DNA of 32,000 bases from Sinorhizobium meliloti (GTDB lineage Bacteria > Pseudomonadota > Alphaproteobacteria > Rhizobiales > Rhizobiaceae): contig NZ_JAGIOS010000002.1 in assembly GCF_017876815.1 (NCBI RefSeq), positions 1,170,001 through 1,202,000 on the forward strand, given 5' to 3'. The notes under the pieces were generated by a model, which was not told the DNA's origin, searched no databases, and worked only from the letters and a program-made list of their open reading frames with translations. Both the position numbers and the translations under genes were made by a program. Within the stretch, counting starts at the first letter, position 1. The number at the start of each line of letters is the position of its first letter. Positions 3,872 to 30,834 of this stretch are shown piece by piece.

Positions 3872-4852
3872 CTACTGACCGAGAGAAACGACGACGTTGC
3901 CGATGGTTTTTCCGCTTTCGACCGCCTCGTGGGCCGCGGCGATGTCGTCCAGCGCGTATGTTCCGGCGATATGATGCCTGAGAAGCCCGGATGCGAGCTG
4001 CCCTTGAAGCGCGCTGACGGTCTCGGTGCGCGCTTCCGGCGACATCTCATAGACGATGAAGAACCGCGCCGCAGCGCCGGCGAGTATCATCGGAAAGAAC
4101 TCGAATGAGACTACGGGCTTACTGGAACCGTAGATCACGCAAAGACCGTCCCGCGCTATGATGCATGGCAGCATCGCGACATTCGTGGCGGCGTCCACCT
4201 CTATGACTCGGTCGACGCCGCGCCCGTGGGTAATGCCCCCTATCCGGTCGACGACCTCTTCCGTTCTGTAGTTGACCGTGTGGTCGGCTCCGAGCCTCGT
4301 GCAGATTTCGGCCTTTTCCGACGAACTGACGGTCGTGATGATACACGCCGCGCCATAAAGCCTCGCGAACTGAATGGCGTAAGCGCCGACTGCGCCCGCG
4401 CCTCCGGTCACCAGCACGGTTTTTCCGAATACGCCTCCGTCCGTGGTCACCGCGCGAAGTGCCGTCAGCGCCGGAATGCCGAGGCAGGCGCCCTCCTCGA
4501 AAGATACGTTATCGGGCAGGTGAACCGCCTGATCCTGTGGAAGGACGACATATTCGGCAGCCGTACCGTTCGAACGTCGCCAGGCGGCATTCCAGGTCCA
4601 TACCCGCTCGCCGATGCGCTCGCCTGCGACGCCCGTTCCCACGGCGTCGATAATGCCTGCGCCATCACTGTGCGGGATCATTCGCGGGGCAATGAGCGGC
4701 CGTCCCGCCCGCGCCTTCACATCGGACGGATTGACGCCGGACGCATGTATGCGGACGCGGACCTCTCCTGGGCCGGGAAGCGGGTCGGGAAGCCCGCCGA
4801 CCTCAAGGACATCGCGGGCGGCGCCATTCTTCTCGTACCATGCAGCTCTCAT
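3872..4852 (-). CDS. NADPH:quinone oxidoreductase / zinc-type alcohol dehydrogenase-like (MDR superfamily) protein
   Basis: 326 aa. GroES-like N-terminus (MRAAWYEKNG...GPGEVRVRIHASGVNPSDVKARAG) and a Rossmann motif (VLVTGGAGAVGAYAIQFA). The ATG at 4852 overlaps the stop of the upstream GGDEF gene (ATGA, 4849-4852). Confidence 0.9.
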   Translation of the reverse strand: MRAAWYEKNGAARDVLEVGGLPDPLPGPGEVRVRIHASGVNPSDVKARAGRPLIAPRMIPHSDGAGIIDAVGTGVAGERIGERVWTWNAAWRRSNGTAAEYVVLPQDQAVHLPDNVSFEEGACLGIPALTALRAVTTDGGVFGKTVLVTGGAGAVGAYAIQFARLYGAACIITTVSSSEKAEICTRLGADHTVNYRTEEVVDRIGGITHGRGVDRVIEVDAATNVAMLPCIIARDGLCVIYGSSKPVVSFEFFPMILAGAAARFFIVYEMSPEARTETVSALQGQLASGLLRHHIAGTYALDDIAAAHEAVESGKTIGNVVVSLGQ

Positions 4853-5892
4853 TGTCGTTGTCTCCGTAAGGCGTCGAGGATGACGAACCGGTCGCGGCCG
4901 TCACGCTTTGCCGAGTAGAGAGCCTTGTCGCAGCTGTTCAGCAGCTCCGCTCGTCGCTGCCCGTTGAGCGGGGCAAGGGCGCCGCCGATGCTGATGCGTG
5001 CAAGGACCGCCTTGCCGTCGACCTGGAAGGGTTCGCGAAAGGCCGCTACCAGCCGCTGCGAGACCGCTGCCAGGGCCGGTGCGTTGGGCGGATTTGGAAT
5101 GAAAACGGCGAATTCGTCGCCGCCCATGCGGATCGCGATATCGCCTGCTCTGATGACCGAGCGAATTCGGTTGGCGGCTTCGTACAAAACCTCGTCGCCG
5201 GCGTGATGGCCAAGCTCGTCGTTGATCGCTTTGAAACCATCCATGTCGAGATAAAGAGCGCCGAAGGTCTGACCCGCGGCGATGGCGTTGTGGAGAGCCC
5301 CGTCGACGATCGACGACAGGGCCGAGCGGTTGAACAGGCCGGTCAACGGATCGGTAATGGCCGCATTCTGTAGTTGGTTATGGGCGAGCCCCATCACGAG
5401 ATTTGCCTTCTGCAAGCTCAAAAGCGCACTGGCGACAGCCGCAAATCGGCGCAGGTTCTGCGCCTGCCCGTCGGAAAGATGCCTGGGCCGGACATCGAGG
5501 ATGCAGAAGCTGCCGACGGGCAGGTTCTCGAGATAGACGGGCGTGCCGGCGTAAAAGCGGAAGTGCGGGCTTCCGACCACATATGGTCTCGTCTTCAGCT
5601 CACGGTCTTCCGCCAGGTCCGGGACAATGAGGAGTTCGTCTGCGAAGACGACCCGCGTGCATATGGACATCTCGCGCGAGCATTCGCCGATCCTGAAGCC
5701 CGCCTGACCGGCGATCCGCTGCCAGTCTTCGTCGATGATGTTGATGGCGGCGTAAGAAACGTCGAAGATGCCTTTGGCAAGCTCGGCCAGGGTCGCGAGT
5801 TCGGGCGTGGGAGCGCTGCCGATTGAATTGAGCGAACGGACTGCGAGCAACCTTTGACGTTCGTTCGTGGGCATTCGTACGGCTTGTCCCAT
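4849..5892 (-). CDS. GAF domain-containing diguanylate cyclase (GGDEF) with RxxD I-site
   Basis: 347 aa. GAF-like N-terminal half, then DPLTGLFNR...YLDMDGFKAINDELGHHAGD...RAGDIAIRMGGDEFAV...ALYSAKRDGRDRF. RxxD sits 5 residues before GGDEF. GAGGGAG RBS lies upstream of the ATG at 5892. Confidence 0.9.
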   Translation of the reverse strand: MGQAVRMPTNERQRLLAVRSLNSIGSAPTPELATLAELAKGIFDVSYAAINIIDEDWQRIAGQAGFRIGECSREMSICTRVVFADELLIVPDLAEDRELKTRPYVVGSPHFRFYAGTPVYLENLPVGSFCILDVRPRHLSDGQAQNLRRFAAVASALLSLQKANLVMGLAHNQLQNAAITDPLTGLFNRSALSSIVDGALHNAIAAGQTFGALYLDMDGFKAINDELGHHAGDEVLYEAANRIRSVIRAGDIAIRMGGDEFAVFIPNPPNAPALAAVSQRLVAAFREPFQVDGKAVLARISIGGALAPLNGQRRAELLNSCDKALYSAKRDGRDRFVILDALRRQRQ

Positions 5893-6013
5893 TTCTATCT
5901 CCCTCGTTCGTGAAAGATGGCGATCCAGGCGACCCGTCCCTTGCCAGGGGAAAGTTCAGCGGCCTTCCGACCTATCGCAGAAAAATGTCGGCGCGCTATC
6001 CTTAAACCTTAGA

Positions 6014-6124
6014 GCGGGATGAGGAAAAATGTGTGCGGTTTTCCGCCCGCATCCCGCGTCTCAACTTCTTGGAATCGATCACGTTCATGCTTTCAGGTCG
6101 ACCCGACCTAAGAGCATCGTGATC
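6014..6124. repeat. Two adjacent extended imperfect hairpins (REP/RIME-like intergenic element or structured RNA)
   Basis: Hairpin 1: GCGGGATG (6014-6021) pairs with CATCCCGC (6050-6057), enclosing GCGG-TTTT-CCGC (6035-6046). Hairpin 2: GATCACG..ATGCT..AGGTCG-ACC-CGACCT..AGCAT-CGTGATC (6077-6124), 18 paired positions. Confidence 0.35.
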
Positions 6125-6327
6125 TAGAGTAATGCGGGGACTCTCGTTCACCCGCCGAAGTTTTGCGCAGTTCACCACCGAAACATGCAAATTTGAGGGT
6201 TGTTCAACACAGAATACCATTCAATCGTGACGAAACGCGGCGAAGCGGCTCAAGTCCGGGCGTAGCGTCGCAGAATAGTTGCGGCAGCGTATCAGCCGAA
6301 CCGGCTGTCCTCAGTGAGTAATTGGAC

Positions 6328-7560
6328 ATGATCCTCAATCATCGGCTCACGCGTATTACCGTCGGCATCCTCCTCCTGGCGCTTGCAATTGCCGTCCTGC
6401 TGCCCGGATTGACTGGCTACAGCAGCCTGGATGGGACGGTAAACGCACGCCTTGCCGTCATAAATGCGCCGATCGACGGCGAGATCGAGAAACCGGCGCC
6501 TCGAATCGGAACGCCGGTGGCAGAGGGTGAAACGCTCGCGACGATCCGTAACCAGCGGGTCAACAGGGCGATCCTGGCGTCGCTGCGCACCGATCATCGA
6601 ACCGCCGTCGAGCGCGTCGCGGCGCTGCGGCGGGAGCGGGATGAACTCGCGCGATTGCGGGATGATCTTGCCGGGCGGCTCGACATCTTCAGGAACGCGA
6701 CCATCGCCAGCCTGGAGCGCGAGGTCCAGATCCTGCAGAAAAGGGTCGAGGTGTCGCGCGCGCAGGACGTCGTGGCAAGGGTTGACCTCGTCCGGCGGCA
6801 GGACCTGGAGTCCAAGGGGATCTTCACCCGCAAGATGGTGGAGGCGGCGCAAGCCGCCGGTGCGGCCGCCGGCGGCGAGCTCGAGATCAGCAATTTGACG
6901 GTGGAGTTGCTGCAGCAACGCCTCAACGCCGTGCGTCAGGGGATATTCCTCGTCGGCGACGGCCAGAACGACGTGCCTTACTCCCGGCAGCGCCAGGACG
7001 AGGTGATCGTTCGCATCCACGATCTCAATACGCGAATCGCGGAGAATGAGGCACGGGCAAAACAGACGGACCAGCAGATAGCCGAGGAGGAGAGGCGGGT
7101 TCTAAGTCTCGAAGCCGCGACGATCCCGTCGCCCTTCGATGGCGTCGTGTGGAGCCGTAACGTCATTAGCGGTTCCAATGTCGTTCTGAACAACGAGATG
7201 ATGCGCATCCTCGATTGCCGCGAGTTGTTCGTCGATATTCTGGTCCCTGAAGTCGATTATGACGAGATCTATCCCGGCCGCGAGGCGGAGGTCCGGCTTT
7301 TCGGTCGCGGCGATGTGTTCCGGGGCCGCGTACAGGCGGTCAAGGGATCGTCCGCGGTCGTGGAAAAGGACTCGCTGGCGGCCAACGAGCCGGAGACGGA
7401 GGAGCGAAATGCCCGCATCCGCGTCACGCTCGCTCCGTCGGCACTCAACACCGATTTTGCGAATTTCTGTCAGGTTGGGCGAACGGCGCAGGTTCGTTTC
7501 TCCAAGCGCAGCCTTCACCTGGCGCAGTGGGTTCAAAGCTTGTGGTTCAGTCTCTTCTAG
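6328..7560 (+). CDS. bgsB: HlyD-family membrane fusion-like protein, partner of the glucan synthase (BgsB-like)
   Basis: N-terminal TM segment (ITVGILLLALAIAVLLPGL), lipoyl-like hairpin motifs (LDGTVNARLAVINAPIDGEI, GETLATIRNQ), a long coiled-coil middle and a beta-barrel C-terminus (IPSPFDGVVWSRNV.SGSNV). The track start is TTG at 6322; ATG at 6328 is preferred. The symbol is from memory of the S. meliloti bgsBA architecture. Confidence 0.75.
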   Translation: MILNHRLTRITVGILLLALAIAVLLPGLTGYSSLDGTVNARLAVINAPIDGEIEKPAPRIGTPVAEGETLATIRNQRVNRAILASLRTDHRTAVERVAALRRERDELARLRDDLAGRLDIFRNATIASLEREVQILQKRVEVSRAQDVVARVDLVRRQDLESKGIFTRKMVEAAQAAGAAAGGELEISNLTVELLQQRLNAVRQGIFLVGDGQNDVPYSRQRQDEVIVRIHDLNTRIAENEARAKQTDQQIAEEERRVLSLEAATIPSPFDGVVWSRNVISGSNVVLNNEMMRILDCRELFVDILVPEVDYDEIYPGREAEVRLFGRGDVFRGRVQAVKGSSAVVEKDSLAANEPETEERNARIRVTLAPSALNTDFANFCQVGRTAQVRFSKRSLHLAQWVQSLWFSLF

Positions 7561-9536
7561 CGCTGGCGCCGACCTTAATCGTCATCGCCTTTTTTCTCCT
7601 CGGCCCGTTCAACTGGTCGCGCCACAGGAGCTGGTCGCGCGCCGTTACCTGCGCGTTCGTCGCTGCAATCGCGCTGCGTTACATGCTCTGGCGCTTCACA
7701 GAAACCGTGCTTCCCTATCCGAACGACGGCCCCAATTTCTATTGGGTCTGGTTCGTGTTCATCGTCGAGTTCCTCGCCTTTTCGGAGGTCGTTCTCTTCC
7801 TCATCCTGATGAGCCGCTACGTCGACCGCAGCGCCGAGGGGAATCGGCTCGAGCGGCAGTTTTTTGAGCGCGATGAACGGGAGCTCCCCACGGTCGACGT
7901 CTTCATCCCGACCTATAACGAGCCTCTCGACGTTCTCGAACGCACGATCGTCGGGGCGCTTGCGCTCGACCATCCCAAGGACAAGCTGAATGTCTATGTG
8001 CTCGACGACGGCCGGCGCGACTGGCTCAGGACCTTCTGCGAGGGGCGCGGTGCGATCCATGTGACGCGCAGCGACAACGCGCATGCCAAGGCCGGCAACA
8101 TGAACAACGGTTTGCGCGTCAGTTCAGGCGATTTCATCGCCGTCTTCGATGCCGATTTCGTACCCTATCGCAGTTTCCTCCGGCGCACCTTGCCCTTCTT
8201 CATGGACGACACGATCGGCATCGTGCAGACACCGCAGCACTTCTTCAACGTCGATCCGATCCAGTCCAATCTCGGACTGGAGAACCTATGGCCCGATGAG
8301 CAGCGCCTGTTTTTCGACGAGATCGCGCCGAGCCGCGACGGCTGGGACGTGAGCTTCTGCTGCGGCTCCTGTTCGATCGCAAGGCGCAAGGCGGTAGACG
8401 CCATCGGCGGTTTTCCAACCGAGTCGATCACCGAGGATCTACTGACGACGCTGTCGATGCTCAACAGGGGGTTCAAGACGCGCTATCTCAACGAGCGGCT
8501 TTCGATGGGGCTGGCGGCCGAGAATCTCACCGGCTATTTCGTCCAGCGCGAGCGCTGGTGCCAAGGCGGTATCCAGACGCTCTACCTGCACAACGGCCCC
8601 TTGCGCGGGCCCGGCCTCTCGCTCTTTCAGCGCGTCATGTTCCTGCCGATGTCGTGGCTCGTGCAATATCTGGTCCGTTTCATCGTGCTTCTCATTCCTA
8701 TCGTCTATCTGTGGTTCGGCGCCCTGCCGCTCTACTTCACGGATGTCGCCGACTACGTCTCGAACCAGGTTCCCCTGCTGGCGGCCTATTTCCTGCTGAT
8801 GTTCTGGCTCACGCCGACGCGCTACCTTCCGCTGGTCTCCACCGCCGTCGGTACCTTCTCGACCTTCCGCATGCTGCCAACCGTCCTGTCGAGCCTCGTC
8901 AGGCCCTTCGGCAAGCCCTTCAAGGTGACCCCGAAGGGCAGCAGCAACGAGGCAAACGTCTTCGACGCCTATACCTTCACCTGGATCGCCGGCTTCATCG
9001 TGGTTACGGCTTTGGGACTCCTGATCAACATCGTTCCGGAGACGGCGCGGGTAGAGGGGTCGTTCTCGGCGATCGCGGCGCTTTGGTCGGGCATCAACAT
9101 CGTGGTGCTGATCATCGCCTCGCTTATCTGCTTCGAGAAGCCGCGGCGCCTGCTGCAGGCGTTCAAGCTCGACGAGCCGGTGGATCTGGACGGTGTCGAA
9201 GGCCGGCTCGTGAGCCTCTCACTGGACAAGGCGGTGGTGGCGGTTTCGACGGAAACGCGGTTCAAATCGACCAAGGTGAGGCTGAACATCGAAGGCTTCG
9301 CGCCGCTCGAAGCGGATCTGAAGCAGGTGACACAGCGGCGCGGGGACATCACGCGCACCGGCGACAAGCAGCGTTACTACCTTCATCTTCACTATGACCT
9401 GCGTGGATTCGAGCGGGACAAGATGATCATCAAGCTCTACACCGGGCGCTATTCCCGGGACGTTCCCGATATCGACAAGATCGCCGTTTCCGTAAATTTG
9501 CTATTGCGCGCTTTCGGTCGCACGCGAACCGCCTGA
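7527..9536 (+). CDS. bgsA: Family 2 glycosyltransferase, BcsA/CrdS-like processive beta-glucan synthase with a non-canonical C-terminal c-di-GMP-type domain (BgsA-like)
   Basis: Motifs seen: VFIPTYNEP, YVLDDG, FDADF, TEDL, QRERWCQG (QxxRW), plus multiple TM helices on both sides of the catalytic domain. The GTG start at 7527 overlaps bgsB by 34 nt (alternative GTG at 7542). No bcsB-like gene follows. Confidence 0.85.
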   Translation: MGSKLVVQSLLALAPTLIVIAFFLLGPFNWSRHRSWSRAVTCAFVAAIALRYMLWRFTETVLPYPNDGPNFYWVWFVFIVEFLAFSEVVLFLILMSRYVDRSAEGNRLERQFFERDERELPTVDVFIPTYNEPLDVLERTIVGALALDHPKDKLNVYVLDDGRRDWLRTFCEGRGAIHVTRSDNAHAKAGNMNNGLRVSSGDFIAVFDADFVPYRSFLRRTLPFFMDDTIGIVQTPQHFFNVDPIQSNLGLENLWPDEQRLFFDEIAPSRDGWDVSFCCGSCSIARRKAVDAIGGFPTESITEDLLTTLSMLNRGFKTRYLNERLSMGLAAENLTGYFVQRERWCQGGIQTLYLHNGPLRGPGLSLFQRVMFLPMSWLVQYLVRFIVLLIPIVYLWFGALPLYFTDVADYVSNQVPLLAAYFLLMFWLTPTRYLPLVSTAVGTFSTFRMLPTVLSSLVRPFGKPFKVTPKGSSNEANVFDAYTFTWIAGFIVVTALGLLINIVPETARVEGSFSAIAALWSGINIVVLIIASLICFEKPRRLLQAFKLDEPVDLDGVEGRLVSLSLDKAVVAVSTETRFKSTKVRLNIEGFAPLEADLKQVTQRRGDITRTGDKQRYYLHLHYDLRGFERDKMIIKLYTGRYSRDVPDIDKIAVSVNLLLRAFGRTRTA

Positions 9537-9571
9537 TCAGCGGTCTGCAGGTTGGGCGGGATGCCTCCGGT

Positions 9572-10285
9572 CTACCTGCCCTTCGGGGCATAGAGCGTGC
9601 GGGAGCGCTCGAGGTGTCTGATCATCGCCTGCTCGGCTTCGTCCGGATTGCCACTGCGGATACAATCTATGATTTCCTCGTGTTCCGTGAGGGTTACGTT
9701 CTCCCGGCCGGTCCAGATCAGCATTTCCGTATGATACTCTTTGAGCCAGCCGAGCATCGCCTCGCTGACGGCGGTGTATATCGGATTGCCGGAAATCTGC
9801 GCAATGCGGGTGTGGAACGCCATGTCCGCGGCGATGAAGGCATCGGAATCCTCGAGTGCCGCCTGCTGCCGCTTCAAGATTTCCTCCAGCGCCGCGATAT
9901 CGCCGGCATCGGCTCGGCTTGCCGCCTCCCGTGCCATTCCGCGTTCGAAGAAGATGCGCGCGCTCTTCAGGTGTTCCAGCGAATCCGAGGAGGCCGCAAG
10001 CATGATCTTGGCGGCGGCATCCACCTGCCGAAGCAGCGACCGCGCCGTCGGCTGCAGCACCTTGGCACGCTCGCCATGCGAAATCTCGATCAGACCCATA
10101 TTGGCAAGCGCCTGCATCGCCTCGCGAATGGCCGGGCGTCCCACCTGGAAGCGCTCCATCAGCATCCGCTCGGAAGGCATCTCGTCTCCCGGTTGCAGCT
10201 CGCCGGTTTCGATCAACGCCTTCAGCCGCGCAAATACCTCGTCGGAGAGTTTCCTGCGGATAATTGGCTCGGATTGCATGACCAT
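9572..10285 (-). CDS. GntR family (FadR/FCD subfamily) transcriptional regulator
   Basis: KLSDEVFARLKALIETGELQPGDEMPSERMLMERFQVGRPAIREAMQALANMGLIEISHGERAKV is a GntR wHTH. It is followed by an all-helical FCD-like domain (FH..IA..SGNP). Divergent from the RLP gene. Confidence 0.9.
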   Translation of the reverse strand: MVMQSEPIIRRKLSDEVFARLKALIETGELQPGDEMPSERMLMERFQVGRPAIREAMQALANMGLIEISHGERAKVLQPTARSLLRQVDAAAKIMLAASSDSLEHLKSARIFFERGMAREAASRADAGDIAALEEILKRQQAALEDSDAFIAADMAFHTRIAQISGNPIYTAVSEAMLGWLKEYHTEMLIWTGRENVTLTEHEEIIDCIRSGNPDEAEQAMIRHLERSRTLYAPKGR

Positions 10286-20252: not shown

Positions 20253-20750
20253 ATGATATCGCTGACGGTCAACGGCAGCCCGCATCAGATCGACGCAGAC
20301 CCCACGACGCCGCTGCTTTACGTGCTGCGCGACGAGCTGGCGCTCAACGGGGCCAAATACGGCTGCGGACTTGGGCAGTGCGGCTCCTGCACCGTCGTCG
20401 TCGATGGCGAGGCGGTGCTTTCCTGCATGGTACCGATCATGCTGCTGGAAGGGCGGGAGGTCACCACCATCGAGGGCCTGGGAACGATCGACGAGCCGGG
20501 GCCGCTGCAGGAGGCGTTCATCGAGCTGCAGGCGGCGCAATGCGGCTATTGCATTCCGGGCATGATGATGAGCGCGCATGCGCTTTTGCGCCGTAACGCG
20601 CAGCCGAGCGAAGAGGAAATCCGCGAGGCGCTGGCGACCAATCTTTGTCGTTGCGGCACCCATATGCGGATTCTCGCGGCGATCCGGCGCGCCGGCGAAC
20701 TGATGCAGGCCGCCTCGTTGCCTGCCACTGACCAGGGGAGGGCCGGCTGA
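20253..20750 (+). CDS. (2Fe-2S)-binding subunit (IorA-like)
   Basis: MISLTVNG..., CGLGQCGSCTV, AQCGYCIPG and CRCGTH motifs. GGAGGA RBS at 20241-20246. The ATG at 20253 lies 2 nt after the cytochrome c stop. Confidence 0.9.
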   Translation: MISLTVNGSPHQIDADPTTPLLYVLRDELALNGAKYGCGLGQCGSCTVVVDGEAVLSCMVPIMLLEGREVTTIEGLGTIDEPGPLQEAFIELQAAQCGYCIPGMMMSAHALLRRNAQPSEEEIREALATNLCRCGTHMRILAAIRRAGELMQAASLPATDQGRAG

Positions 20751-22995
20751 TGGGCATTCTTCAGGAAGAAATCACCCGCCGCAGCGTCATCGCAGGTGCC
20801 GGCGGGCTTGTCGTCGGTTTCTCGCTCGGCCGCTCATTTGCCCAGGAGCTTCCGCCGGCAATGCCGCCGGCTCCGCCAGTGTCCCTGCCGGGCAGCCTTG
20901 ACGACGAGCGCTTCCTCGATTCATGGATCCGCATCGATCCCGACAATTCGGTCACGGTCTTCACCGGCAAGGCGGAACTCGGGCAGGGCATTCGAACGGC
21001 CCTGTTGCAGGTTGCCGCCGAGGAGCTCGAAGTCGACCCCGCGGAGATCCGGCTGATAACGGCCGACACCGGCCGAACCCCCAATGAAGGGTTCACGGCC
21101 GGCAGCCAGTCGATGCAAAACAGCGGTACCGCCATCAGGAACGCTGCAGCCCAGGTGCGGGCCCTGCTTCTCGCCGAAGCTGCCAGGCGCTTCGGCATGG
21201 CGGCGACGGAACTCAAGGCGGAAAACAAGGCGGTGCTGGCAAAAGACGGACGGCTGGCGACCTACGGCGAGCTCGTTTCCGGACAGATGCTGCACGTGGA
21301 AGCTCAACCGCAATCGGCCTTGAAGCCGCCTGGTACTTTCCGCGTGATCGGCAAAACACTGCCGCGCGTCGACATCCCGGGTAAGGTGACGGGCCAGCCG
21401 GCCTATGTTCATGATCTTCGCCTGAAAGGCATGCTGCATGCGCGCGTCGTACGCCCGCCGAGCTCCGCTGCCAGGCTTGCGGAGGTGGATGCGAGCGCCG
21501 CCGAGGCGCTGCCGGGCGTCGTCTCGGTCGTGCGCGACGGCAATTTCCTGGCGGTGGTGGCCTCGAAAGAGTTCCAGGCGGTGAACGCCATGCGGACGCT
21601 GGCGGCGGCCGCGCAGTGGCAGGAAAGCGAGACGCTCCCCGACCAGACCGACCTGCCGGCGGAACTGCAGAGGCTCGAGAGCGAGGTGGGGACGGTCGCC
21701 GAGGCCGGCATGCTTTCGTCTGATGGCAAGATATTCGAGGCGACGTTTAGATTAGCCGGCCCTATCAGATCCACGGCTCGATCGGTCCGTCCTGCGCCGT
21801 CGCGCAGATGAAGGCGGACGGGTCACTGGACGTGTGGTCGCACACGCAGGGTGTCTTTCCCGATCGGGCGGCGATCGCCGAGATGCTGGCCATGCCGGAG
21901 GACAAGGTTCACGTCATCCATATGGAAGGGTCGGGCTGTTACGGCCACAATGGAGCCGATGACGCGGCTGCGGATGCGGCCCTCATCGCCAGCAAGCTGC
22001 GGGGCAAGCCGATCCGGGTCCAGTGGATGCGGGAGCAGGAGCACAGCTGGGAGCCCTATGGTCCTGCAATGCTCATGAAGATCAGCGCCGCACTGGACGA
22101 TCAGGGCAGGATCGCCAGCTGGGCCTATGACCTCTGGAGCAATACCCACTCCACCCGCCCGGGCGGCGCCGGTGCGCTCCTCGCGGCGCGCCACAAGGCC
22201 GAAGCCTTTCAGCCGAAGCCTGCCAAGCTCAATATCAGCCCGTCGGGCAACGGCGACCGAAATGCCGATCCGCTCTATGTGATCCCGAACAAGCGCGTGC
22301 TCTGGCATTTCCTGGCCGACATGCCGCTTCGCGTATCGGCGCTTCGCGCGCTTGGGGCCTATGCCAATGTCTTCGCCATCGAAAGCACGATCGATGAGCT
22401 GGCGCTGATCGCCGAAGCAGATCCGGTCGAATTCCGGCTACGCCACATGGAGGACCCGCGAGCCCGTGCCGTGATCGAGCTGGCCGCGGAGCGGTTCGGC
22501 TGGGACAAGGCGCAGATGCCCCGCAACCGCGGACGCGGCTTCGGCTTCGCCCGCTACAAGAACCTTGCCGCCTATCTGGCGGTGGCGATGGAGGTGGATG
22601 TCGAGCCCGAAACGGGCCGTGTTCATGTGATCCGCGCCGTTTCCGCCATCGACAGCGGCGAGATCGTCAACCCGGACGGTATCCGCAATCAGACCGAAGG
22701 CGGAATTTTGCAGTCGATCAGCTGGACGCTCTATGAGGCCGTGGCCTTCGACCGGACCAGGATCACCAGCACCGATTGGTCGAGCTATCCGATCCTGCGC
22801 TTCGCAAGTGTCCCGGAAAGCGTGGAGGTCCATATCGTCGAGCGTCCCGGGGAACCTTTCCTCGGCACCGGGGAAGCGGCCCAGGGCCCGGCCGCCGCAG
22901 CCGTCGCCAACGCGATCAGGGATGCGACCGGCAAGCGCCTTTACGATCTGCCTTTTACCAGGGATCGGATACGAAGCGCCGTCGGGCGCGCGTGA
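20750..22995 (+). pseudogene. Molybdopterin-binding dehydrogenase large subunit (IorB-like) with Tat-type leader, split into two ORFs (20750..21811 and 21808..22995) by a frameshift at about 21749-21753
   Basis: The N-terminus MGILQEEITRRSVIAGAGGLVVGFSLGRSFAQ carries a T-R-R-x-V-I motif. ORF1 ends in 20 Arg/Pro/Ser-rich junk codons. The ORF2 frame is open from 21751 and reads SRPYQIHGSIGPSCAVAQMKADGSLDVWSHTQ, which aligns with YRTPHYNHNAIEPHAAIAAWDEDGRLTVFDSTQ of the in-window paralog (13072..15363). Confidence 0.7.
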
Positions 22996-23028
22996 AGCGG
23001 CAGGTCCTCACCACGGCGAGCAGGAAAG

Positions 23029-23256
23029 TCACGCCCGTTCGTCACGCAGGGCGTTGACGATCTCGAGCGTCACGGGCGGTGCGTCCGGACGAGGCGACAG
23101 GAGAGGAATTCCATTACGCTCGCCGCCGCTGCGCGGCCGGCGCAGAGAACGCCTCGCCAGTTCGGAAATTACCTCGCCGACGCTCCGCTGCTGTTGGGTC
23201 GCCATTGCCTTTGCGGCGATCAGGACATCGTCGTCAATAGCCAAGGTCGTTCTCAT
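23029..23256 (-). CDS. VapB-like (ribbon-helix-helix) type II antitoxin, no cognate toxin gene adjacent
   Basis: MRTTLAIDDDVLIAAKAMA...SVGEVISELARRSL...NGIPLLSPRPDAPPVTLEIVNALRDE is a typical antitoxin pattern. ATG at 23256 with GAGG upstream. The track start at 23277 is TTG. Confidence 0.7.
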   Translation of the reverse strand: MRTTLAIDDDVLIAAKAMATQQQRSVGEVISELARRSLRRPRSGGERNGIPLLSPRPDAPPVTLEIVNALRDERA

Positions 23257-23437
23257 GTTCGCCTCATCGCGCATCAATCATCACGCATCATTAAGCAAGA
23301 GGTCGGCATTCTCAAGGTGGAATAGTGAAGGATGATCCCGTCATTGACCCGCTCTTTGCCGGTCGAAATCACATTCTCCAATCGGTGGGAGAACCGCGGG
23401 GGGCTCCGATTCAAATCGGGTCAACCCGCCTTCGAGT

Positions 23438-23911
23438 TTACCATTCGAGTATCGGCCGCGTGATCATGAGCCAGAAGATCGCGAGGACGGCGCCGAAGGC
23501 CGGGAAGCCGAAGGCGAACCACAGGCGGAAGAGTTGATGATAACGCTTCGGCAGCGGCTCGCCGGCCTTGCTTGCCGTTTCGGCGAGCCGGCGCATTTCC
23601 ATCTGCATCCACACGACCGGCAGCCAGAATGCGCCTGTGACCACGTAGAGGAGAAGCGAAAGCAGGATCCATCCTTCCGCGAGTGAATAGCCGACGTTCC
23701 ATGCAAGGGCGATCCCCGTGACGGGCTGCAACACCACGGCGGTGGCGGTGAAAAGAAAATCGGCGATGACGACGATGCGGGCCACGGCCGCAACCGTTTC
23801 CGTGCGGCCGGTCCGATGCGCCAGGAGCATGAAGAATGCGATCCCGGCGCCCGTGCCGAGGAGGACGGAGGCGCCGATGATGTGCAGGAACTTCAGAACG
23901 AAGTACAGCAT
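23438..23911 (-). CDS. DUF2269 family integral membrane protein
   Basis: 157 aa with four predicted TM helices (MLYFVLKFLHIIGASVLLGTGAGIAFFML...). The ATG at 23911 overlaps the upstream stop by 1 nt (TGATG). The 29 upstream track codons are unsupported. Confidence 0.8.
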   Translation of the reverse strand: MLYFVLKFLHIIGASVLLGTGAGIAFFMLLAHRTGRTETVAAVARIVVIADFLFTATAVVLQPVTGIALAWNVGYSLAEGWILLSLLLYVVTGAFWLPVVWMQMEMRRLAETASKAGEPLPKRYHQLFRLWFAFGFPAFGAVLAIFWLMITRPILEW

Positions 23912-25200
23912 CAACGCTCCTCCAGGATAGCAAGGGCAGCGAGATGCAGCACCAGGATGGGCCAGATCTTCAGAAGCGGTCCAAGCGGCTCGTTCCACAA
24001 TTCCGGGAGCAGGGCCGTGCCGGCGATCGCATAGAAAAGCGAGAGGCCGACCGCGCCATAAAGGCCGATGCGGCTTGTGCGGCGAACCGCGATTGCCATA
24101 CCGATCAGGATGTCGGCGAGGGCTCCGGCGATGACGCTCGGCCCCGCAAGAACGCCGGCGCCTCCCCGTTCCATCAGATCAACGCCGATTTCATACCCCG
24201 ATGTGAGCGAGATGACGCCCGTCGTGATCCAGAAGAGCGGGAGGACGACGAAGATGACGGGCTTGAGCAGATAGAGCTTGGCGAACCAGCGCTCCTGGAC
24301 TGAAACCGGCGTTCTCGCCAGCGCGTCTGCGAGCGCCATCGGTTCTATCCCGGTTTTCTCAACCCATGCCCTGTTGTCGCCGACGGCGCCGCGCCCGATC
24401 TCTTTTTGCGCGGTGCTGCGGGTCGGCGGTCGCCAGCCCAGAGCCCCGGCGATGTCGCTGAGCTTGTAGGTGAGATTCGCGAGCGGGGTTGGCATGTTTA
24501 CGACGCGAGCAGCGGGCCATCCGAACCAGCGCCTGTAGGTGCCCACCACGTCCTTGAACGACAGGGCCTCAGGTCCCGCAACCTCGAGAGTGAGCCGCGA
24601 AGGAGCATTCGGGTTGACGAACATCTCGACCGTGCGCACCACGTCCTCGAGGCGCACGACCTGAAGCAATCCGGTATTCGGCATGACCGGCAGCCAGGGC
24701 AGTGCGGCGAGGCCCCTGAAAAGCGCGCTTGCGCCGTAGGCTCCAGGGCCGAGCACGACGGAGGGGCGCAGGATGACCCAGTCGAGATCGCATGCCATTA
24801 GCGCTTCGTCGCCCTGAAGCTTGGTGCGCGAAAAGGGCGAGGGCTGGGCCCTGTCGACCCCCATTGCCGAGAAGTGGATGACGCGGCGCACGCCCGCCTG
24901 CTCGCAGGCCTTGAAGAGCGAGGCGGGACCGCGGGCATGGACTGCCGTCGTATCCTCCCCCGGACCGTCCTGGAGCGTTCCCGCGCAGTTTACTACGGCG
25001 TCGATGCCTGAGAGATGCGGCAGCCAGTCTTCAGGGCCGACGGACCGAAGGTCGAGTTCTAGGGCTTTGCCGGCCGTGTGGGAGCTTGGTGCCGAGCCGG
25101 GCCGGACCACGCGGACGATCTCGCTTCCACGGCCATGGAGCCCTGCGCACACGGCCGAGCCGATCAGGCCGGAGGCGCCGACCACAAGTACTCTCGTCAT
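23911..25200 (-). CDS. SDR/NAD(P)-binding (NmrA/epimerase-like) domain fused to a C-terminal DoxX-like membrane domain
   Basis: MTRVLVVGASGLIGSAV Rossmann start. A soluble domain of about 300 aa is followed by 4 TM helices (LLKPVIFVVLPLFWITTGVISL ... ILVLHLAALAILE). GAGGA RBS lies upstream of the ATG at 25200. Confidence 0.85.
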   Translation of the reverse strand: MTRVLVVGASGLIGSAVCAGLHGRGSEIVRVVRPGSAPSSHTAGKALELDLRSVGPEDWLPHLSGIDAVVNCAGTLQDGPGEDTTAVHARGPASLFKACEQAGVRRVIHFSAMGVDRAQPSPFSRTKLQGDEALMACDLDWVILRPSVVLGPGAYGASALFRGLAALPWLPVMPNTGLLQVVRLEDVVRTVEMFVNPNAPSRLTLEVAGPEALSFKDVVGTYRRWFGWPAARVVNMPTPLANLTYKLSDIAGALGWRPPTRSTAQKEIGRGAVGDNRAWVEKTGIEPMALADALARTPVSVQERWFAKLYLLKPVIFVVLPLFWITTGVISLTSGYEIGVDLMERGGAGVLAGPSVIAGALADILIGMAIAVRRTSRIGLYGAVGLSLFYAIAGTALLPELWNEPLGPLLKIWPILVLHLAALAILEER

Positions 25201-25567
25201 TCGTCCTCACAATCTTTCCGGACGGGCCGCCATTCGCACTCGCCCTACGTCCGACGCCAAACAACTGCGGCAAGGAAGATGTTCCTTTTGACTTGACCTC
25301 CGTTTTTTATGCGGCACTCTCCCGCTGAAAGAGTCTTAAGACCCTCTCCGCGAGGGCTCTCGACAATCGCCGGCTCTACTCTATTTGGATCGAGGCGGTG
25401 CTGGATGTGAAAAGGCGGCTATAGCACTTTGATTTGCTGCTGTTTTTGTCTTCGAATCAGTCGGGATTCAAGGAAAGACGCAGTGGAGAGGAAACGAGTC
25501 GTTTGCTTGACATCGGGAGTGTCGGCGAACGTCTCGGGTGTGGTTGAGTACAAGGGAGGAGAATATT

Positions 25568-26860
25568 ATGCGGTTGATTTCCATTTCCACAACGATTGCA
25601 TTCGGCTTCGCTTTTCAGGCGCAGGCCGCCACGGAACTGCAGTGGTGGCACGCAATGACGGGTGCCAATAACGAAATGATCGAGGAACTCACCAAGGAGT
25701 TCAACGAGAGCCAGAGCACCTACAAGGTGGTGCCTGTCTTCAAGGGCACCTATCCCGAGACACTGAATGCCGGCATCGCGGCTTTCCGGTCGAAGCAGCC
25801 GCCGGCGATCATTCAGGTGTTCGATGCCGGCAGCGGCACGATGATGGCCGCCGAGGGCGCGATCGTGCCGGCAGCGGAGATCCTCCAGAAGGGCGGCTTC
25901 ACCTTCGACAAATCGCAGTATCTGCCCGGGATCGTCGCCTATTATTCGAAGCCGGACGGAACGATGCTGTCCTTTCCGTACAACTCCTCCTCGCCCATCC
26001 TTTATTACAACAAGGACGCTTTTCAGAAGGCGGGCTTGAACGTCGACAACCCGCCGAAGACCTGGCCGGAAGTCTTCGAAGCGGCGAAGAAGATCAAGAC
26101 GAGCGGTGCGGCGCCTTGCGGAATGACGTCGACCTGGCTGACGTGGATCCAGACGGAGAACTTCGCCGCCTGGAACAACGTGCCCTACGGAACCAATGAA
26201 AACGGCCTCGGCGGAACCGACGTGAAGCTGCAGATCAACGCGCCGCTTTACGTGGAACATTTCCAGGCGATTGCGGATCTCGCCAAGGACGGCGCCTTCC
26301 GCTATGGCGGGCGCACCTCGGAGGCAAAGCAGCTCTTCACCTCAGGCGAATGTGCCATCCTGACCGAGTCTTCTGGCGGTCTCGGCGACATCGCCAAGAG
26401 CGGCGTGAACTACGGCATCGGCCAGTTGCCCTATTACGAGGGCCACGGCCCGCAGAACACGATCCCCGGCGGAGCGAGCCTCTGGGTATTCGCCGGCAAG
26501 TCGGACGAGGAATACAAGGGCGTAGCGGAGTTCTTCAACTTCCTTTCCCAGACCGAGATTCAAGCCAAGCTGCACCAGATCTCGGGCTATATGCCGGTCA
26601 CGATGGCCGCCTACGAGGAAACGAAGAAGTCGGGCTTCTACGAGAAGAACCCCGGGCGCGAAACGCCGCTCCTGCAGATGATGGGCAAGGCGCCGACCGA
26701 AAACTCGAAGGGCGTCCGGCTGGTCAACCTGCCCCAGGTTAGGGACATCCTCAACGAGGAGTTCGAAGCGATGCTGTCAGGGCAACAGGATGCCAAGACG
26801 GCGCTCGACAAGGCGGTCGAACGCGGCGACGCCGCAATCGCAGCAGCAATCAGCAATTGA
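25568..26860 (+). CDS. ugpB: sn-glycerol-3-phosphate ABC transporter substrate-binding protein
   Basis: Close colinear similarity to remembered E. coli UgpB (AGIAAFR, NSS.P.LYYNKDAF.KAGL....PPKTW, GGASLWV, GFYEKNPG, ALD.AVERG). Signal peptide MRLISISTTIAFGFAFQAQA. GGAGGAG RBS lies before the ATG at 25568. Confidence 0.92.
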   Translation: MRLISISTTIAFGFAFQAQAATELQWWHAMTGANNEMIEELTKEFNESQSTYKVVPVFKGTYPETLNAGIAAFRSKQPPAIIQVFDAGSGTMMAAEGAIVPAAEILQKGGFTFDKSQYLPGIVAYYSKPDGTMLSFPYNSSSPILYYNKDAFQKAGLNVDNPPKTWPEVFEAAKKIKTSGAAPCGMTSTWLTWIQTENFAAWNNVPYGTNENGLGGTDVKLQINAPLYVEHFQAIADLAKDGAFRYGGRTSEAKQLFTSGECAILTESSGGLGDIAKSGVNYGIGQLPYYEGHGPQNTIPGGASLWVFAGKSDEEYKGVAEFFNFLSQTEIQAKLHQISGYMPVTMAAYEETKKSGFYEKNPGRETPLLQMMGKAPTENSKGVRLVNLPQVRDILNEEFEAMLSGQQDAKTALDKAVERGDAAIAAAISN

Positions 26861-26873
26861 TCGAGGCAGGTGT

Positions 26874-26899
26874 CCGGCGCCGTCGTTCGACGGCGTCGG
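26874..26899 (+). other. Intercistronic stem-loop after ugpB (11-bp stem, GTTC loop)
   Basis: CCGGCGCCGTC-GTTC-GACGGCGTCGG with one G-U pair, followed by a partial T tract (CTTTCT). A second hairpin CTCGGGCCG-ATC-CGGCCCCGAG lies at 26931-26952. Confidence 0.4.
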
Positions 26900-26977
26900 G
26901 CTTTCTGCGGTCATGCCGCCCTGACGTGATCTCGGGCCGATCCGGCCCCGAGGTCATCGTGATCCAGGAGATTGCTC

Positions 26978-27859
26978 GTGCAGCGTGTCGTCTTTCCGAA
27001 CAAAATCCTCCCTTACTTGCTCGTCGCTCCGCAGATCGTCTTGACGATCGTTTTCTTCTTCTGGCCGGCAAGCCAGGCGCTCTACCAATCGGTGATCCGT
27101 GAAGACCCGTTCGGCCTGAAAAGCGGCTTCGTCGGTTTTGCCAATTTCAGCGCCGTGCTTTCGGAGGCGAATTATCTCAACTCGCTGAAGGTCACGGTGA
27201 TCTTCAGCGTCCTCACCGCGCTGCTCGCGATGGGCGTCGCCCTGCTTCTCGCCACGGCCGCCGACCGCGTCGTGCGCGGGAAGACCTTCTATCGCACCCT
27301 GCTGATCTGGCCCTATGCCGTCGCACCGGCCGTCGCCGGCATGCTGTGGCTCTTCATGTTCAATCCGGCGATGGGCACCTTCGCCTATATGCTGAGGCGG
27401 AACGGCTTTCACTGGGATCCGTTGCTGAACGGCAATCACGCCATGATGCTGATCGTCGTTGCAGCGGCCTGGAAACAGATCAGCTACAATTTTCTCTTCT
27501 TCGTCGCCGGGCTCCAGGCCATACCCAAGTCGCTCATCGAAGCGGCGGCGATCGATGGAGCGCGCGGCACCCGGCGTTTCTGGACGATCATCTTCCCGCT
27601 GCTGGCGCCGACGACCTTTTTCCTGCTCGTGGTCAACACCGTCTACGCCTTCTTCGATACGTTCGGCATCATCCACTCGGTCACGGGCGGAGGGCCGGCT
27701 AGGGCGACGGAAACCTTGGTCTACAAGGTCTATAACGACGGCTTCGTCAACCTGAACCTCGGCTCGTCCGCGGCCCAGTCCGTGATCCTCATGGCGATCG
27801 TCATTGGGCTTACCGCCTTTCAGTTCCGGTTCGTCGAAAGGCGTGTCCACTATGGATGA
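26978..27859 (+). CDS. ugpA: sn-glycerol-3-phosphate ABC transporter permease
   Basis: [18 protein letters not shown]-terminus as in UgpA, and the EAA-loop region IEAAAIDGA...RFW.I.FPLL. GTG at 26978 lies 8 nt after AGGAGA. The track start TTG at 26972 is too close to the RBS. Confidence 0.9.
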
Positions 27860-27867
27860 GATCGCCA

Positions 27868-28716
27868 ATGATTGAAAAGCGCCCCATCTCCAACCTGATC
27901 GGGCACCTGATGCTGATCATCGGCATCATCATCGTGGTTTTCCCGATCTATTATACCTTCGTCGCCTCAAGCATGAGCTCGGTCGAGATCATCCGGCCGC
28001 CTATGCCGCTCGTTCCCGGCACGCGGCTTGCCGAGAATTATAGCGAAGCGCTTTCCGGTGGAGTCGAGCGTGTGGTCGGCGTCAGTCTCGAACGGTTGCT
28101 GTTCAACACATTCGTGGTGGCGATCGCGATCGCCGTCGGCAAGATCGTCATTTCCTTCCTCTCGGCCTTCGCCATCGTGTTCTTCCGTTTCCGCCTGCGC
28201 ATGGCCTTCTTCTGGATGATCTTCATCACGCTGATGCTCCCGGTGGAGGTGCGGATCCTGCCGACGTATAAGGTGATCGTCGATCTCGGACTGATCGACA
28301 CCTATGCGGGACTGACGCTTCCCCTGATGGCGTCGGCGACGGCGACCTTCCTGTTCCGGCAGTTCTTTCTCACCATCCCGGGCGAACTCGTGGAAGCGGC
28401 GCGCATCGACAATGCCGGGCCGTTCCGCTTCATGCGGGATATTCTGCTGCCGCTTTCAAAGACCAATATCGCGGCGCTTTTCGTGATCCTCTTCATCTAC
28501 GGCTGGACCCAGTATCTCTGGCCGCTGCTGGTCACGAATGACAGCCGGATGAACACGATCATCATCGGCCTCAGGAAGATGGTCGATTTCACTGACGCAT
28601 CGACCCCGTGGAACTACGTTATGGTGACCGCCATCCTCGCGATCATCCCGCCTGTCGCGGTGGTCGTCCTGATGCAGCGCTGGTTCGTCAAGGGCCTCGT
28701 CGAAACGGAGAAGTAA
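27868..28716 (+). CDS. ugpE: sn-glycerol-3-phosphate ABC transporter permease
   Basis: MIEKRP... matches the remembered UgpE N-terminus MIENRP. EAA loop [19 protein letters not shown]. An alternative ATG at 27856 forms an ATGA overlap with the ugpA stop. Confidence 0.9.
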
Positions 28717-29765
28717 TGGCAACGATCACTCTCAAGGATGTCCACAAGACCTATCACGGCGACATCGCCGCGATCCGCGGCGTTTCGCTTGCGATTGCCG
28801 ACGGCGAGTTCATCGTGCTCGTCGGCCCTTCCGGCTGCGGAAAATCGACGCTGCTGAGGATGATCGCGGGGCTCGAGAGCATCACGTCGGGCGAGGTCTC
28901 CATCGGCGACCGCGTCGTCAACGGGCTGGAGCCTTCCGAGCGCGACATTGCTATGGTCTTTCAGAACTACGCGCTCTACCCGCATATGACGGTCCGTCAG
29001 AATCTCAGCTATGGCCTGAAGAACCGCAACACGCCGAAGGAAGAAATCGAGCGCCGCATAGCCAAGGCGGCGAAGTCCCTGGAGATTGAGCCCTTCCTGG
29101 ATCGAAAGCCACGGCAGCTTTCAGGCGGGCAGCGCCAGCGTGTGGCCATGGGGCGCGCCATCGTCCGGGAGCCTGCCGCCTTCCTGTTCGACGAGCCTCT
29201 CTCGAACCTCGACGCCAAGCTCAGGGTCCAGATGCGCGTCGAGATCAAGCGCCTTCAGCGGGCGCTCGGCACGACGAGCGTCTACGTCACCCACGACCAG
29301 CTGGAAGCGATGACGCTCGCCGACCGCCTCGTGGTTCTGAACGGGGGGAGGATCGAGCAGGTCGGTACGCCGATCGAGCTGTACGAGAACCCGGCGACGG
29401 CATTCGTCGCAACCTTCATCGGCTCGCCTTCGATGAACCTTCTCGATCTCAATACCGGCAATGCTGCCTGGTCGGCCCCGGCGGCTCTCGTCGGGAAGCC
29501 GGGGCTTGCGACAATCGGAATCCGACCTGAGGACATTACCCTCGCCGGTGACACGGACGGCGGCGAGCGTTTCAGAGCCCGCGTGCGCGTCGGCGCCGTG
29601 GAACTCGTCGGCGCCGAAAGCTATGTGCACGGCACCCTGGCGAACGGCGAGCCGCTCGTCTTCAGGGTTGCCGGCCGCTCCCGCATGATGATCGACGAGG
29701 AGGTCGAGGTCGCAGCGGTGGCCGGAAGCCTGCACTGGTTCGACGCCGCCGGCCGGCGCTTGTAG
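28716..29765 (+). CDS. ugpC: sn-glycerol-3-phosphate ABC transporter ATP-binding protein
   Basis: Walker [10 protein letters not shown], signature LSGGQRQR, Walker [12 protein letters not shown], and a MalK-like C-terminal regulatory domain. The ATG at 28716 overlaps the ugpE TAA by 1 nt, with GGAGAAG RBS upstream. Confidence 0.92.
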
Positions 29766-29885
29766 CGCGAGGGTGGCAAGGCGACCCCGTTTACCAAATT
29801 TTTGCGACCCGCTGTCGGCACGGCCTTTCCTCCAACGTCCTTGCAGGTGGCCATTTGGACGATCAGGAAGATCAGGAGAACCGAA

Positions 29886-30512: not shown

Positions 30513-30544
30513 AACTGGATGAGGAATGATCCAGAGCAGGTTCA

Positions 30545-30834
30545 CCCCCTCTGGCCTGCCGGCCATCTCCCCCACAAGGGGGGAGACCATTTGAGGCGCG
30601 CTCAGCGTCTCAACAAGGATTCCTGTATGCGGGGACCTGCTGTGGGGGCAAAGAGTGAAACGCTTGTATTCTCCCCCCTTGTGGGGCAGGGGAATCGCAT
30701 ATGCGGAACAGGCATGGAACATCGAAGGGTTTGTTCTCGATGCGATTCCGTTCTGTTCGCCATTCGATTCCTCGAAATCGGCCATATGCGAAAGCCCTAC
30801 CTTGTGGGGGAGATGCCCGGCAGGGCAGTGGGGG
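30545..30834. repeat. 290-bp repeat cluster bounded by 35-bp imperfect inverted repeats (MITE/RIME-like), with a third internal core copy
   Basis: 30545-30579 (CCCCCTCTGGCCTGCCGGCCATCTCCCCCACAAGG) matches the reverse complement of 30800-30834 at 32 of 35 positions (counted by hand). The core CCCCACAAGGGGGGAGA recurs inverted at about 30670-30686. Each core folds as a G/C hairpin. Confidence 0.55.

Follow-up and report, generated by a model that had tools for sequence, protein, structure and literature searches.

Organisation of the bgsBA locus

The window analysed here, a stretch of 32,000 nucleotides, is part of the Sinorhizobium meliloti megaplasmid pSymB; DNA identity is 100% with strain SM11 and 99.5% with strain 1021. 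Two open reading frames on its plus strand, both with Pfam matches and PGAP annotation, form the locus of interest: bgsB (SMb20390; 6328–7560), which encodes a 410-residue periplasmic adaptor of the HlyD type, presumably anchored in the inner membrane, and bgsA (SMb20391; 7542–9536), which encodes a 664-residue processive family-2 glycosyltransferase identified by homology as a mixed-linkage beta-glucan synthase. The gene names are those of PMC13438883 and PMC9495663. BgsB matches its strain 1021 counterpart at 410 of 410 residues and BgsA at 662 of 664, the two substitutions being at residue 549 (Leu here, Val in 1021) and residue 623 (Phe here, Val in 1021), positions that are both variable among the 19 diverse orthologs compared. 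These sequence matches identify the pair as the bgsBA operon of S. meliloti pSymB, which has been characterised before: it is the type locus of a system reported in 2015, with further studies in 2017, 2019, 2022 and 2026. In strains 8530, 1021 and 2011 the locus has the same gene overlap, the same GGDEF and GntR neighbours and all of the functional residues; relative to strain 1021 there are only strain-level differences, namely the two BgsA residues and a GGDEF neighbour that is 6 aa longer here. A sequence-only reading of this DNA had matched the pair to the S. meliloti bgsBA operon, correctly as it turns out, and the locus thus provides a calibration point for the recognition of a system from raw sequence.

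The start of bgsA determines how far the two genes overlap. The experimentally studied residues of BgsA, as numbered in PMC5567048, fall into register only when translation begins at the GTG at 7542 (10 of 10 residues), which is also the PGAP start. Of 19 orthologous loci sampled, 3 have no in-frame start upstream of the equivalent codon. Because the published numbering and PGAP agree on this position, the overlap is 19 nt (7542–7560, plus strand); the sequence-only reading was right that the genes overlap, but the 34 nt it had calculated from an alternative GTG at 7527 does not stand. Of the 80 related loci that we collected, most show a like arrangement, with abutting tblastn matches to the two proteins, and the overlap suggests translational coupling. 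For bgsB, PGAP places the start at 6328, with an alternative TTG start at 6322.

On the 3' side the operon is bounded by a convergent regulator gene of the GntR/FCD family (NanR-type by Pfam and NCBIfam; 9572–10285, minus strand), which the sequence-only reading had named as the next gene. A close NanR match (97%) adjoins bgsA in 1 of the 80 related loci, that of the near-identical Ensifer sp. USDA 6670. On the 5' side lies a divergent gene for a GAF-GGDEF diguanylate cyclase (4849–5892, minus strand; Pfam GGDEF E 8e-43, GAF E 2e-6), a possible local source of c-di-GMP. A GGDEF gene also occurs near bgsBA in several Sinorhizobium loci, though identity is only about 42%, and in 3 of the 19 loci sampled. 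The literature searched does not mention the locus tag of the gene found here.

Between the divergent GGDEF gene and bgsB is an intergenic region of 435 nt (5893–6327), which presumably holds the promoter and the region controlled by ExpR. Transcription of bgsBA depends on the ExpR/Sin quorum-sensing system, with the ExpR requirement published in PMC9495663 and PMC13438883. A consensus scan of positions 5800–9700 returned no sigma-70-like promoter, and a terminator scan of the same interval returned one weak terminator-like hairpin. Rfam gave no match anywhere in the window, and no inverted repeats were found in the region upstream of bgsB. An ExpR consensus was not found in the searchable literature, and no ExpR box was located upstream of bgsB. 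A CCC-N7-GGG dyad is present upstream of bgsB at 5937–5951.

Gene pairing and the synthase core of BgsA

The pairing of an HlyD-like protein with a family-2 glycosyltransferase, proposed from the raw sequence, is borne out by HlyD and GT2 Pfam matches of the two reading frames and recurs well beyond S. meliloti. The sequence-only reading had suggested asking whether the closest homologs of the synthase are canonical BcsA proteins with bcsB directly downstream. Instead, the 120 best BgsA homologs (534–675 aa, most about 664 aa) have no PilZ Pfam match, and in 80 of 80 related genome loci, which span Sinorhizobium, Rhizobium, Phyllobacterium, Mesorhizobium, Salinarimonas and Methylobacterium, bgsA has bgsB directly upstream. 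The neighbourhoods are otherwise unrelated, with no family present in more than 4 of the 112 neighbouring ORFs. BcsB, GH8 and OEP are absent among the neighbour families with at least two members from this set, and a scan of ORFs across the window gave no BcsB, GH8 endoglucanase or outer-membrane factor. The PGAP tables of strain ml46 likewise list no BcsB, BcsZ or outer-membrane gene within 20 kb on either side. The absence of such partners had also been noted from the raw sequence.

BgsA matches GT2 families (E about 1e-23; Pfam PF13641 and PF00535), with a cytoplasmic catalytic domain encoded at 7887–8564. All four motifs of a processive synthase that the sequence-only reading had listed were located in the translation: DDG (8004–8012), DADF (8148–8159), TED (8430–8438) and QRERW (8544–8558), of which the residues checked are invariant in 19 diverse orthologs. 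To these we add the sequence FKVTPK (8919–8936), which corresponds to the FxVTxK gating-loop motif noted for BgsA in PMC5567048; all 19 orthologs keep F460 and K465 of this loop. Residues 39–555 are homologous to the solved BcsA structures (E 2e-77), a similarity that extends no further than the last TM helix, and the full-length BgsA model aligns with BcsA at TMq values of 0.59–0.67. BgsA resembles the synthases of the BcsA-BcsB systems of Rhodobacter/Cereibacter (4hg6, 4p00) and E. coli (9b8v) in its GT2 core with D,D,D,QxxRW and TED, and BcsA in its FxVTxK gating loop, its TM channel and its activation by c-di-GMP via a C-terminal cytoplasmic domain. Unlike those systems, bgsBA lacks BcsB, BcsZ and BcsC and has an HlyD-type adaptor as the partner, and the BgsA product has alternating 1,3 and 1,4 linkages.

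We considered whether the glycosyltransferase might be an orphan canonical cellulose synthase that makes beta-1,4-glucan. TIGR03030 (CelA) is the best NCBIfam match of BgsA (E 1e-121), its best solved homologs are BcsA proteins and many database entries call its orthologs cellulose synthase. However, the TIGR03030 score of 406.8 bits is far below the equivalog cut-off of 699.1, and that for NF008558 is 308.4 bits against a cut-off of 992. The C-terminal domain has no PilZ Pfam match and neither RxxxR nor DxSxxG, no bcsB, bcsZ or bcsC adjoins the pair, and S. meliloti 8530 has no cellulose genes and makes a lichenase-digestible mixed-linkage glucan (MLG; PMC5567048, PMC9495663). With sub-cut-off scores, no PilZ motifs and no adjacent bcsB, we rejected the assignment to canonical BcsA as highly improbable.

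That BgsA is of the CrdS type and makes curdlan, a beta-1,3-glucan, is just as improbable, even though orthologs of BgsA in S. medicae, S. fredii and Methylobacterium carry the name curdlan synthase and CrdS, like BgsA, has a post-TM tail of roughly 100 residues without PilZ motifs (PMC6821405). The neighbour-joining tree of PMC9495663 places an R. etli glycosyltransferase with BgsA and another with CelA, and none groups clearly with CrdS. The partner of bgsA is an HlyD-type adaptor rather than crdA or crdC, and the published bgsBA product is MLG; on these grounds the CrdS assignment was also rejected.

[quoted passage not shown] According to that study, c-di-GMP binding requires R599 and H615 (9336–9338 and 9384–9386 in the window), activity requires R605, D608, Y633, G635 and R656, and the substitutions R535A/R536A have no effect. 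All seven of the required residues are present in register here.

C-BgsA was published as a "novel, non-PilZ" domain, and sequence comparisons are in line with that description. Residues 526–664 have no Pfam match even at E <= 10, and a motif scan of the domain finds neither RxxxR nor [D/N]xSxxG. A phmmer search of 1.84 billion representative proteins placed the domain in only 23 representative clusters and returned no PilZ homologs. A profile of C-BgsA searched against PDB sequences recovered no PilZ chain, its sole match being a spurious histone (E 0.64). The AF2 model (mean pLDDT 73, core near 90) points in another direction. At the moderate confidence of this model, the domain is predicted to fold as a PilZ-like six-stranded beta-barrel followed by a helix, and its top Foldseek matches are PilZ domains, with weak E-values. 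C-BgsA is thus predicted to share the barrel fold of the BcsA PilZ domain while lacking both PilZ sequence motifs.

We lean slightly towards the view that C-BgsA is a cryptic PilZ-fold barrel derived from the PilZ domain of BcsA, which would have lost the motifs and moved binding to the beta5-beta6 segment that carries R599 and H615. In Methylobacterium-type orthologs a deletion of 7–8 residues removes this segment, the stretch R599–D608, and a near-canonical hSxxG turn (SLSLEGG) is retained; these proteins could be intermediate forms or be regulated in a different way. The predicted fold is one small new point of the present analysis and, if true, would reconcile BgsA with the regulatory architecture of BcsA.

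BgsB and the export of the glucan

BgsB matches the Pfam families HlyD_D23 (PF16576; E 1e-14, 54.8 bits against a cut-off of 30) and HlyD_3 (PF13437; E 3e-12, 47.5 bits against a cut-off of 22.2). Matches to NCBIfam models of the EmrA/HlyD type are weak, with all adaptor scores far under their cut-offs. Among PDB sequences, BgsB matches LipC (5nen) and EmrA (4tko). Its translation begins with a hydrophobic segment, RITVGILLLALAIAVLLPG (aa 9–27; 6352–6408), presumably a single membrane anchor, and contains a barrel-sandwich domain at 7066–7344 (PF16576). Based on the HlyD domains above the Pfam gathering score and the N-terminal anchor, we classify BgsB as a periplasmic adaptor of the HlyD/EmrA type.

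Between the anchor and the barrel-sandwich domain, at 6793–6828, BgsB has the sequence RRQDLESKGIFT (aa 156–167), which fits the RxxxLxxxxxxT form of the RLS/RLT motif, for which a TolC-docking function is described in PMC3391258. The Arg and Leu are invariant in 74 of 74 BgsB sequences, and the third position is Thr in 47, Ser in 13 and Ala in 14. The segment sits near the middle of a putative helical hairpin (aa ~80–255, with boundaries read from the sequence) and is thus a candidate for the tip that docks onto TolC, although this is suggestive only, as R...L......[ST] is a short pattern with two occurrences in BgsB. What BgsB has in common with HlyD, LipC and EmrA, adaptors of type I secretion and MFS-type tripartite systems, is the N-terminal anchor, the barrel-sandwich domain and, presumably, a long helical hairpin, with the RLT-type motif as its candidate tip. 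Unlike in those systems, the inner-membrane partner is a glycosyltransferase and not an ABC or MFS transporter.

PMC5567048, PMC9495663 and PMC13438883 describe the bgsBA product as a linear glucan in which beta-1,3 and beta-1,4 bonds strictly alternate and which is made only at high c-di-GMP. These findings cover strains 8530 and 2011 as well as R. etli. How two inner-membrane proteins could export such a polymer was raised as a puzzle in the sequence-only reading. For the genes in the window the point is valid, with neither tolC nor expR present in it, and genetic work published since then gives an answer, with a requirement for unlinked TolC and a proposed BgsA-BgsB-TolC complex (PMC13438883, 2026). 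In that study, transposon screens gave insertions only in bgsA, bgsB and expR, and a tolC mutant neither made MLG nor accumulated it inside the cell, a defect complemented by tolC. Adding tolC to bgsBA and pleD* raised the yield about 8-fold, and the three together transferred MLG production to Mesorhizobium. The conserved RLT-type motif of BgsB is consistent with the proposed complex.

These observations suggest the following mechanism. BgsA, a BcsA-like processive GT2 in the inner membrane, would polymerise UDP-glucose into the alternating glucan and drive the chain through a transmembrane channel of its own, remaining inactive until c-di-GMP occupies the C-terminal cytoplasmic domain, for which R599 and H615 are essential. 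BgsB, presumably co-translated from the overlapping reading frame and held by its single N-terminal helix, most likely forms a periplasmic conduit above BgsA. Through its hairpin tip, with the RLT motif as the candidate contact, BgsB would probably dock onto the unlinked outer-membrane channel TolC, and the resulting tripartite machine would extrude the polymer across both membranes; we infer both the direct BgsB-TolC contact and the passage of glucan through TolC. We estimate a probability of roughly 0.93 for the account as a whole, comprising the identity of bgsBA, the c-di-GMP-activated MLG synthase and export by BgsA-BgsB-TolC.

The requirement for TolC could instead be indirect, through envelope integrity or the secretion of another factor, in which case BgsB would not bridge to TolC but serve BgsA in the periplasm as a scaffold or guide in place of BcsB, and the glucan would leave by another outer-membrane route. 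The authors of PMC13438883 explicitly leave an indirect role open, such as secretion of another factor, and in S. meliloti mutation of tolC has pleiotropic effects on EPS-I, EPS-II and stress sensitivity. Four points argue against it: (i) BgsB is of the HlyD/EmrA type, and its nearest solved relatives operate with TolC-type channels. (ii) The RLT-type motif has kept its Arg and Leu in every BgsB ortholog compared. (iii) The module of tolC, bgsBA and pleD* is enough for production in a non-producer. (iv) The transposon screens were saturating and gave no alternative outer-membrane gene. We therefore regard an indirect role as unlikely and favour the BgsA-BgsB-TolC channel, for which the conserved RLT-type motif offers a direct handle by point mutation. 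Together with the predicted fold of C-BgsA, this motif may be of interest to the field of c-di-GMP-regulated synthases.

A parallel is drawn in PMC13438883, which cites Maeda et al. (2018) for tripartite cellulose secretion in Thermosynechococcus by a cellulose synthase, an HlyD-like adaptor and TolC. As described there, that system likewise has, in place of BcsB and BcsC, an HlyD-type adaptor and an outer-membrane channel of the TolC type alongside its BcsA-like synthase; unlike that of bgsBA, its polymer is cellulose, and it belongs to a different lineage.

Identity and gene content of the bgsBA locus

Two overlapping plus-strand open reading frames (ORFs) were found where the sequence-only reading had placed them, at 6322/6328–7560 and 7527/7542–9536. 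They correspond to bgsB (SMb20390), which encodes an HlyD-type adaptor, and bgsA (SMb20391), which encodes a GT2 synthase (PMC13438883; PMC9495663). BgsB exceeds the Pfam gathering scores for the HlyD barrel-sandwich families PF16576 and PF13437 and matches the EmrA/HlyD-type adaptor models of NCBIfam weakly. BgsA matches GT2 families in Pfam and scores 407 bits against the NCBIfam model TIGR03030 (CelA), well below its 699-bit equivalog cut-off. Each of the motifs claimed earlier for BgsA (DDG, DADF, TED and QRERW) is present, as is an FKVTPK gating loop. The next gene is, as had been stated, a convergent regulator (GntR/FCD, 9572–10285, minus strand; Pfam, NCBIfam), and a divergent GAF-GGDEF diguanylate cyclase gene (4849–5892, minus strand; Pfam) lies upstream of the pair. 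The reported absence of BcsB, endoglucanase and outer-membrane genes was confirmed: no BcsB, GH8 or outer-membrane-factor family was matched among the ORFs scanned across the window, and none is annotated within ±20 kb in the PGAP-annotated sister strain ml46.

Several S. meliloti strains, SM11 among them, carry pSymB-type megaplasmids to which the 3.8-kb region is 100% identical; against pSymB of strains 1021 and 2011 the identity is 99.5%. Relative to strain 1021, BgsB has no amino-acid changes and BgsA has two, V549L and V623F, at positions that vary among orthologs. These comparisons support the earlier identification as bgsBA, a locus that is already known and experimentally characterized. 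The overlap between the two genes had been put at 34 nt on the condition that bgsA starts at GTG 7527. All ten BgsA residues studied experimentally (E327, R535, R536, R599, R605, D608, H615, Y633, G635 and R656; PMC5567048) are in register only when GTG 7542 is the start, which is also the PGAP start, and the overlap is thus 19 nt. In 3 of 19 sampled orthologous loci, the 7542-equivalent codon has no in-frame start before it.

According to published work, the product, mixed-linkage β-glucan (MLG), is a linear glucan in which β-1,3 and β-1,4 bonds alternate perfectly. Its synthesis requires both bgsA and bgsB, whose transcription depends on ExpR/SinI quorum sensing, and the c-di-GMP pathway has its own cyclase, BgrR, which is under the control of a partner-switching system.

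The 120 best BgsA homologs, from Sinorhizobium/Ensifer, Rhizobium, Pararhizobium, Phyllobacterium, Mesorhizobium, Microvirga, Salinarimonas and Methylobacterium, are 534–675 aa long (most about 664 aa), share 64–98% identity and include none with a PilZ Pfam match. All 80 related genome loci have a BgsB homolog directly upstream of bgsA, in most cases abutting it as here. The pattern expected if the best homologs were canonical BcsA proteins followed by bcsB was therefore not found. In 19 diverse loci, 112 ORFs around the pair were scanned; the most widespread family occurs at most four times, and BcsB, GH8 and outer-membrane factors are absent from the families seen at least twice. On this comparative evidence bgsBA is a self-contained two-gene module, mobile between unrelated neighbourhoods, and not a truncated bcs operon.

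Five of the 80 loci look decayed, with assembly errors possible in each case: bgsB carries a frameshift in Pararhizobium LjRoot255 and in an alphaproteobacterial MAG and lacks an internal stretch in S. chiapasense S24; about 1.1 kb interrupts bgsA in Rhizobiales R129_I; and a deletion in R. herbae HU44 joins bgsB aa 173 to bgsA aa 153. The naming of BgsA orthologs in public databases is inconsistent ('cellulose synthase (UDP-forming)', 'Curdlan synthase', 'glycosyltransferase'), and no entry among the listed homologs is called a mixed-linkage glucan synthase.

Export and TolC

How a two-protein inner-membrane system exports its polymer had been posed as a puzzle, to which a published answer exists (PMC13438883). 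In that 2026 study, saturating transposon screens gave hits limited to bgsA, bgsB and expR. A tolC mutant made no MLG and accumulated none inside the cell, and production was restored by tolC in trans. Adding tolC to a bgsBA-pleD* plasmid raised the yield about 8-fold, and the combination conferred MLG production on Mesorhizobium japonicum. The authors proposed a BgsA–BgsB–TolC tripartite complex while conceding that an indirect role of TolC is possible (PMC13438883).

The nearest solved relatives of BgsB by sequence, LipC (5nen) and EmrA (4tko), are both TolC-dependent adaptors. Residues 156–167 of BgsB, RRQDLESKGIFT, match the RxxxLxxxxxxS/T (RLS/RLT) motif, which in MacA, AcrA and HlyD forms the hairpin tip that touches TolC (PMC3391258). 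The motif is close to the midpoint of the stretch that we read as the helical hairpin. All 74 BgsB sequences compared keep the R and L and have T, S or A at the third position. Because the pattern is short and BgsB contains it twice, the motif is supporting evidence for TolC docking and a target for mutagenesis rather than proof. The residual value of the locus lies in this handle on the TolC model and in the predicted PilZ-like fold of the BgsA tail.

Predicted fold of the c-di-GMP-binding tail

BgsA needs c-di-GMP for activity and binds it through its 139-aa C-terminal tail (C-BgsA, aa 526–664; 9117–9533) with a KD of 0.23 µM. Affinity drops about 1000-fold in R599A and H615A, and R605A, D608A, Y633A and R656A abolish activity with binding unaffected. 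No effect is seen with R535A or R536A; these residues had been examined as potential equivalents of BcsA R580, which is the first arginine in the PilZ RxxxR motif (all PMC5567048). C-BgsA has been described as structurally different from PilZ (PMC5567048; PMC6821405; PMC10374906), and our literature search found no paper contradicting this. The published view holds at the sequence level: C-BgsA has no Pfam match at E ≤ 10, and its profile found no PilZ chain among PDB sequences. Just 23 representative clusters match it among 1.84 billion proteins; most are short sequences, and the sole full-length one is BgsA.

An AlphaFold2 model of aa 526–664, built from 50 orthologs (mean pLDDT 73, core near 90), comprises six β strands followed by a helix, in agreement with the full-length BgsA model. 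In a Foldseek search of the PDB, PilZ domains make up almost all of its top matches: YcgR, MotI/DgrA, the K. xylinus cellulose synthase PilZ domain, PlzA, MrkH, BcsA, MapZ, VCA0042 and Alg44. E-values are weak (3e-3 to 0.2), and TM-scores range from 0.37 to 0.52 when normalized to the query, 38 residues of which have pLDDT < 50. The full-length model can be aligned to BcsA, with TMq of 0.59–0.67 against the eight deposited BcsA chains carrying sequence (686–760 alignment columns; targets of 721–845 residues). At the β2–β3 turn of the C-BgsA model, the site of the [D/N]hSxxG motif in PilZ structures, lies SLSLDK; Methylobacterium-type orthologs have SLSLEGG there, one residue short of that motif. 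We slightly favour, with a probability of roughly 0.55, the model-based reading that C-BgsA would be a degenerate PilZ barrel binding c-di-GMP on a non-canonical face.

In BgsA orthologs of Methylobacterium, Methylorubrum and Microvirga massiliensis, a 7–8 aa deletion removes the R599–D608 segment (R599, R605 and D608), and the H615 position is K, R, G or S. The c-di-GMP control of Methylobacterium-type orthologs may differ from that in S. meliloti.

Other features of the window

The literature yielded no link between the GAF-GGDEF gene at 4849–5892 and MLG. Its product is 6 aa shorter at its end in strain 1021. Several further Sinorhizobium species have a different GGDEF gene, about 42% identical, at a similar position; in a few other genera, bgsBA is flanked by GGDEF or EAL genes. 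The region upstream of bgsB contains an imperfect dyad, TCCCTTGCCAGGGGA, at 5937–5951.

Two consecutive minus-strand ORFs of 251 and 654 aa at 301–2990 (annotated by PGAP as hypothetical, about 242 and 578 aa) sit immediately 3' of a same-strand IclR-type regulator gene and match no Pfam family at E ≤ 1e-5. Compared with ml46, a 5-nt insertion (TTAGA) at 21747–21751, probably a strain-specific frameshift, breaks a molybdopterin-binding oxidoreductase subunit gene into ORFs at 20750–21811 and 21808–22995. Relative to the same strain, the window has an extra base at 12914 and 17060 and lacks one after 17675 and 18943. Colinearity with ml46 pSymB stops at 23011; the genes of 23012–32000 (DUF2269, an NAD-epimerase/DoxX fusion, a sugar ABC transporter, GST and a zinc alcohol dehydrogenase) differ from those of ml46, and by this comparison the segment is strain-variable.
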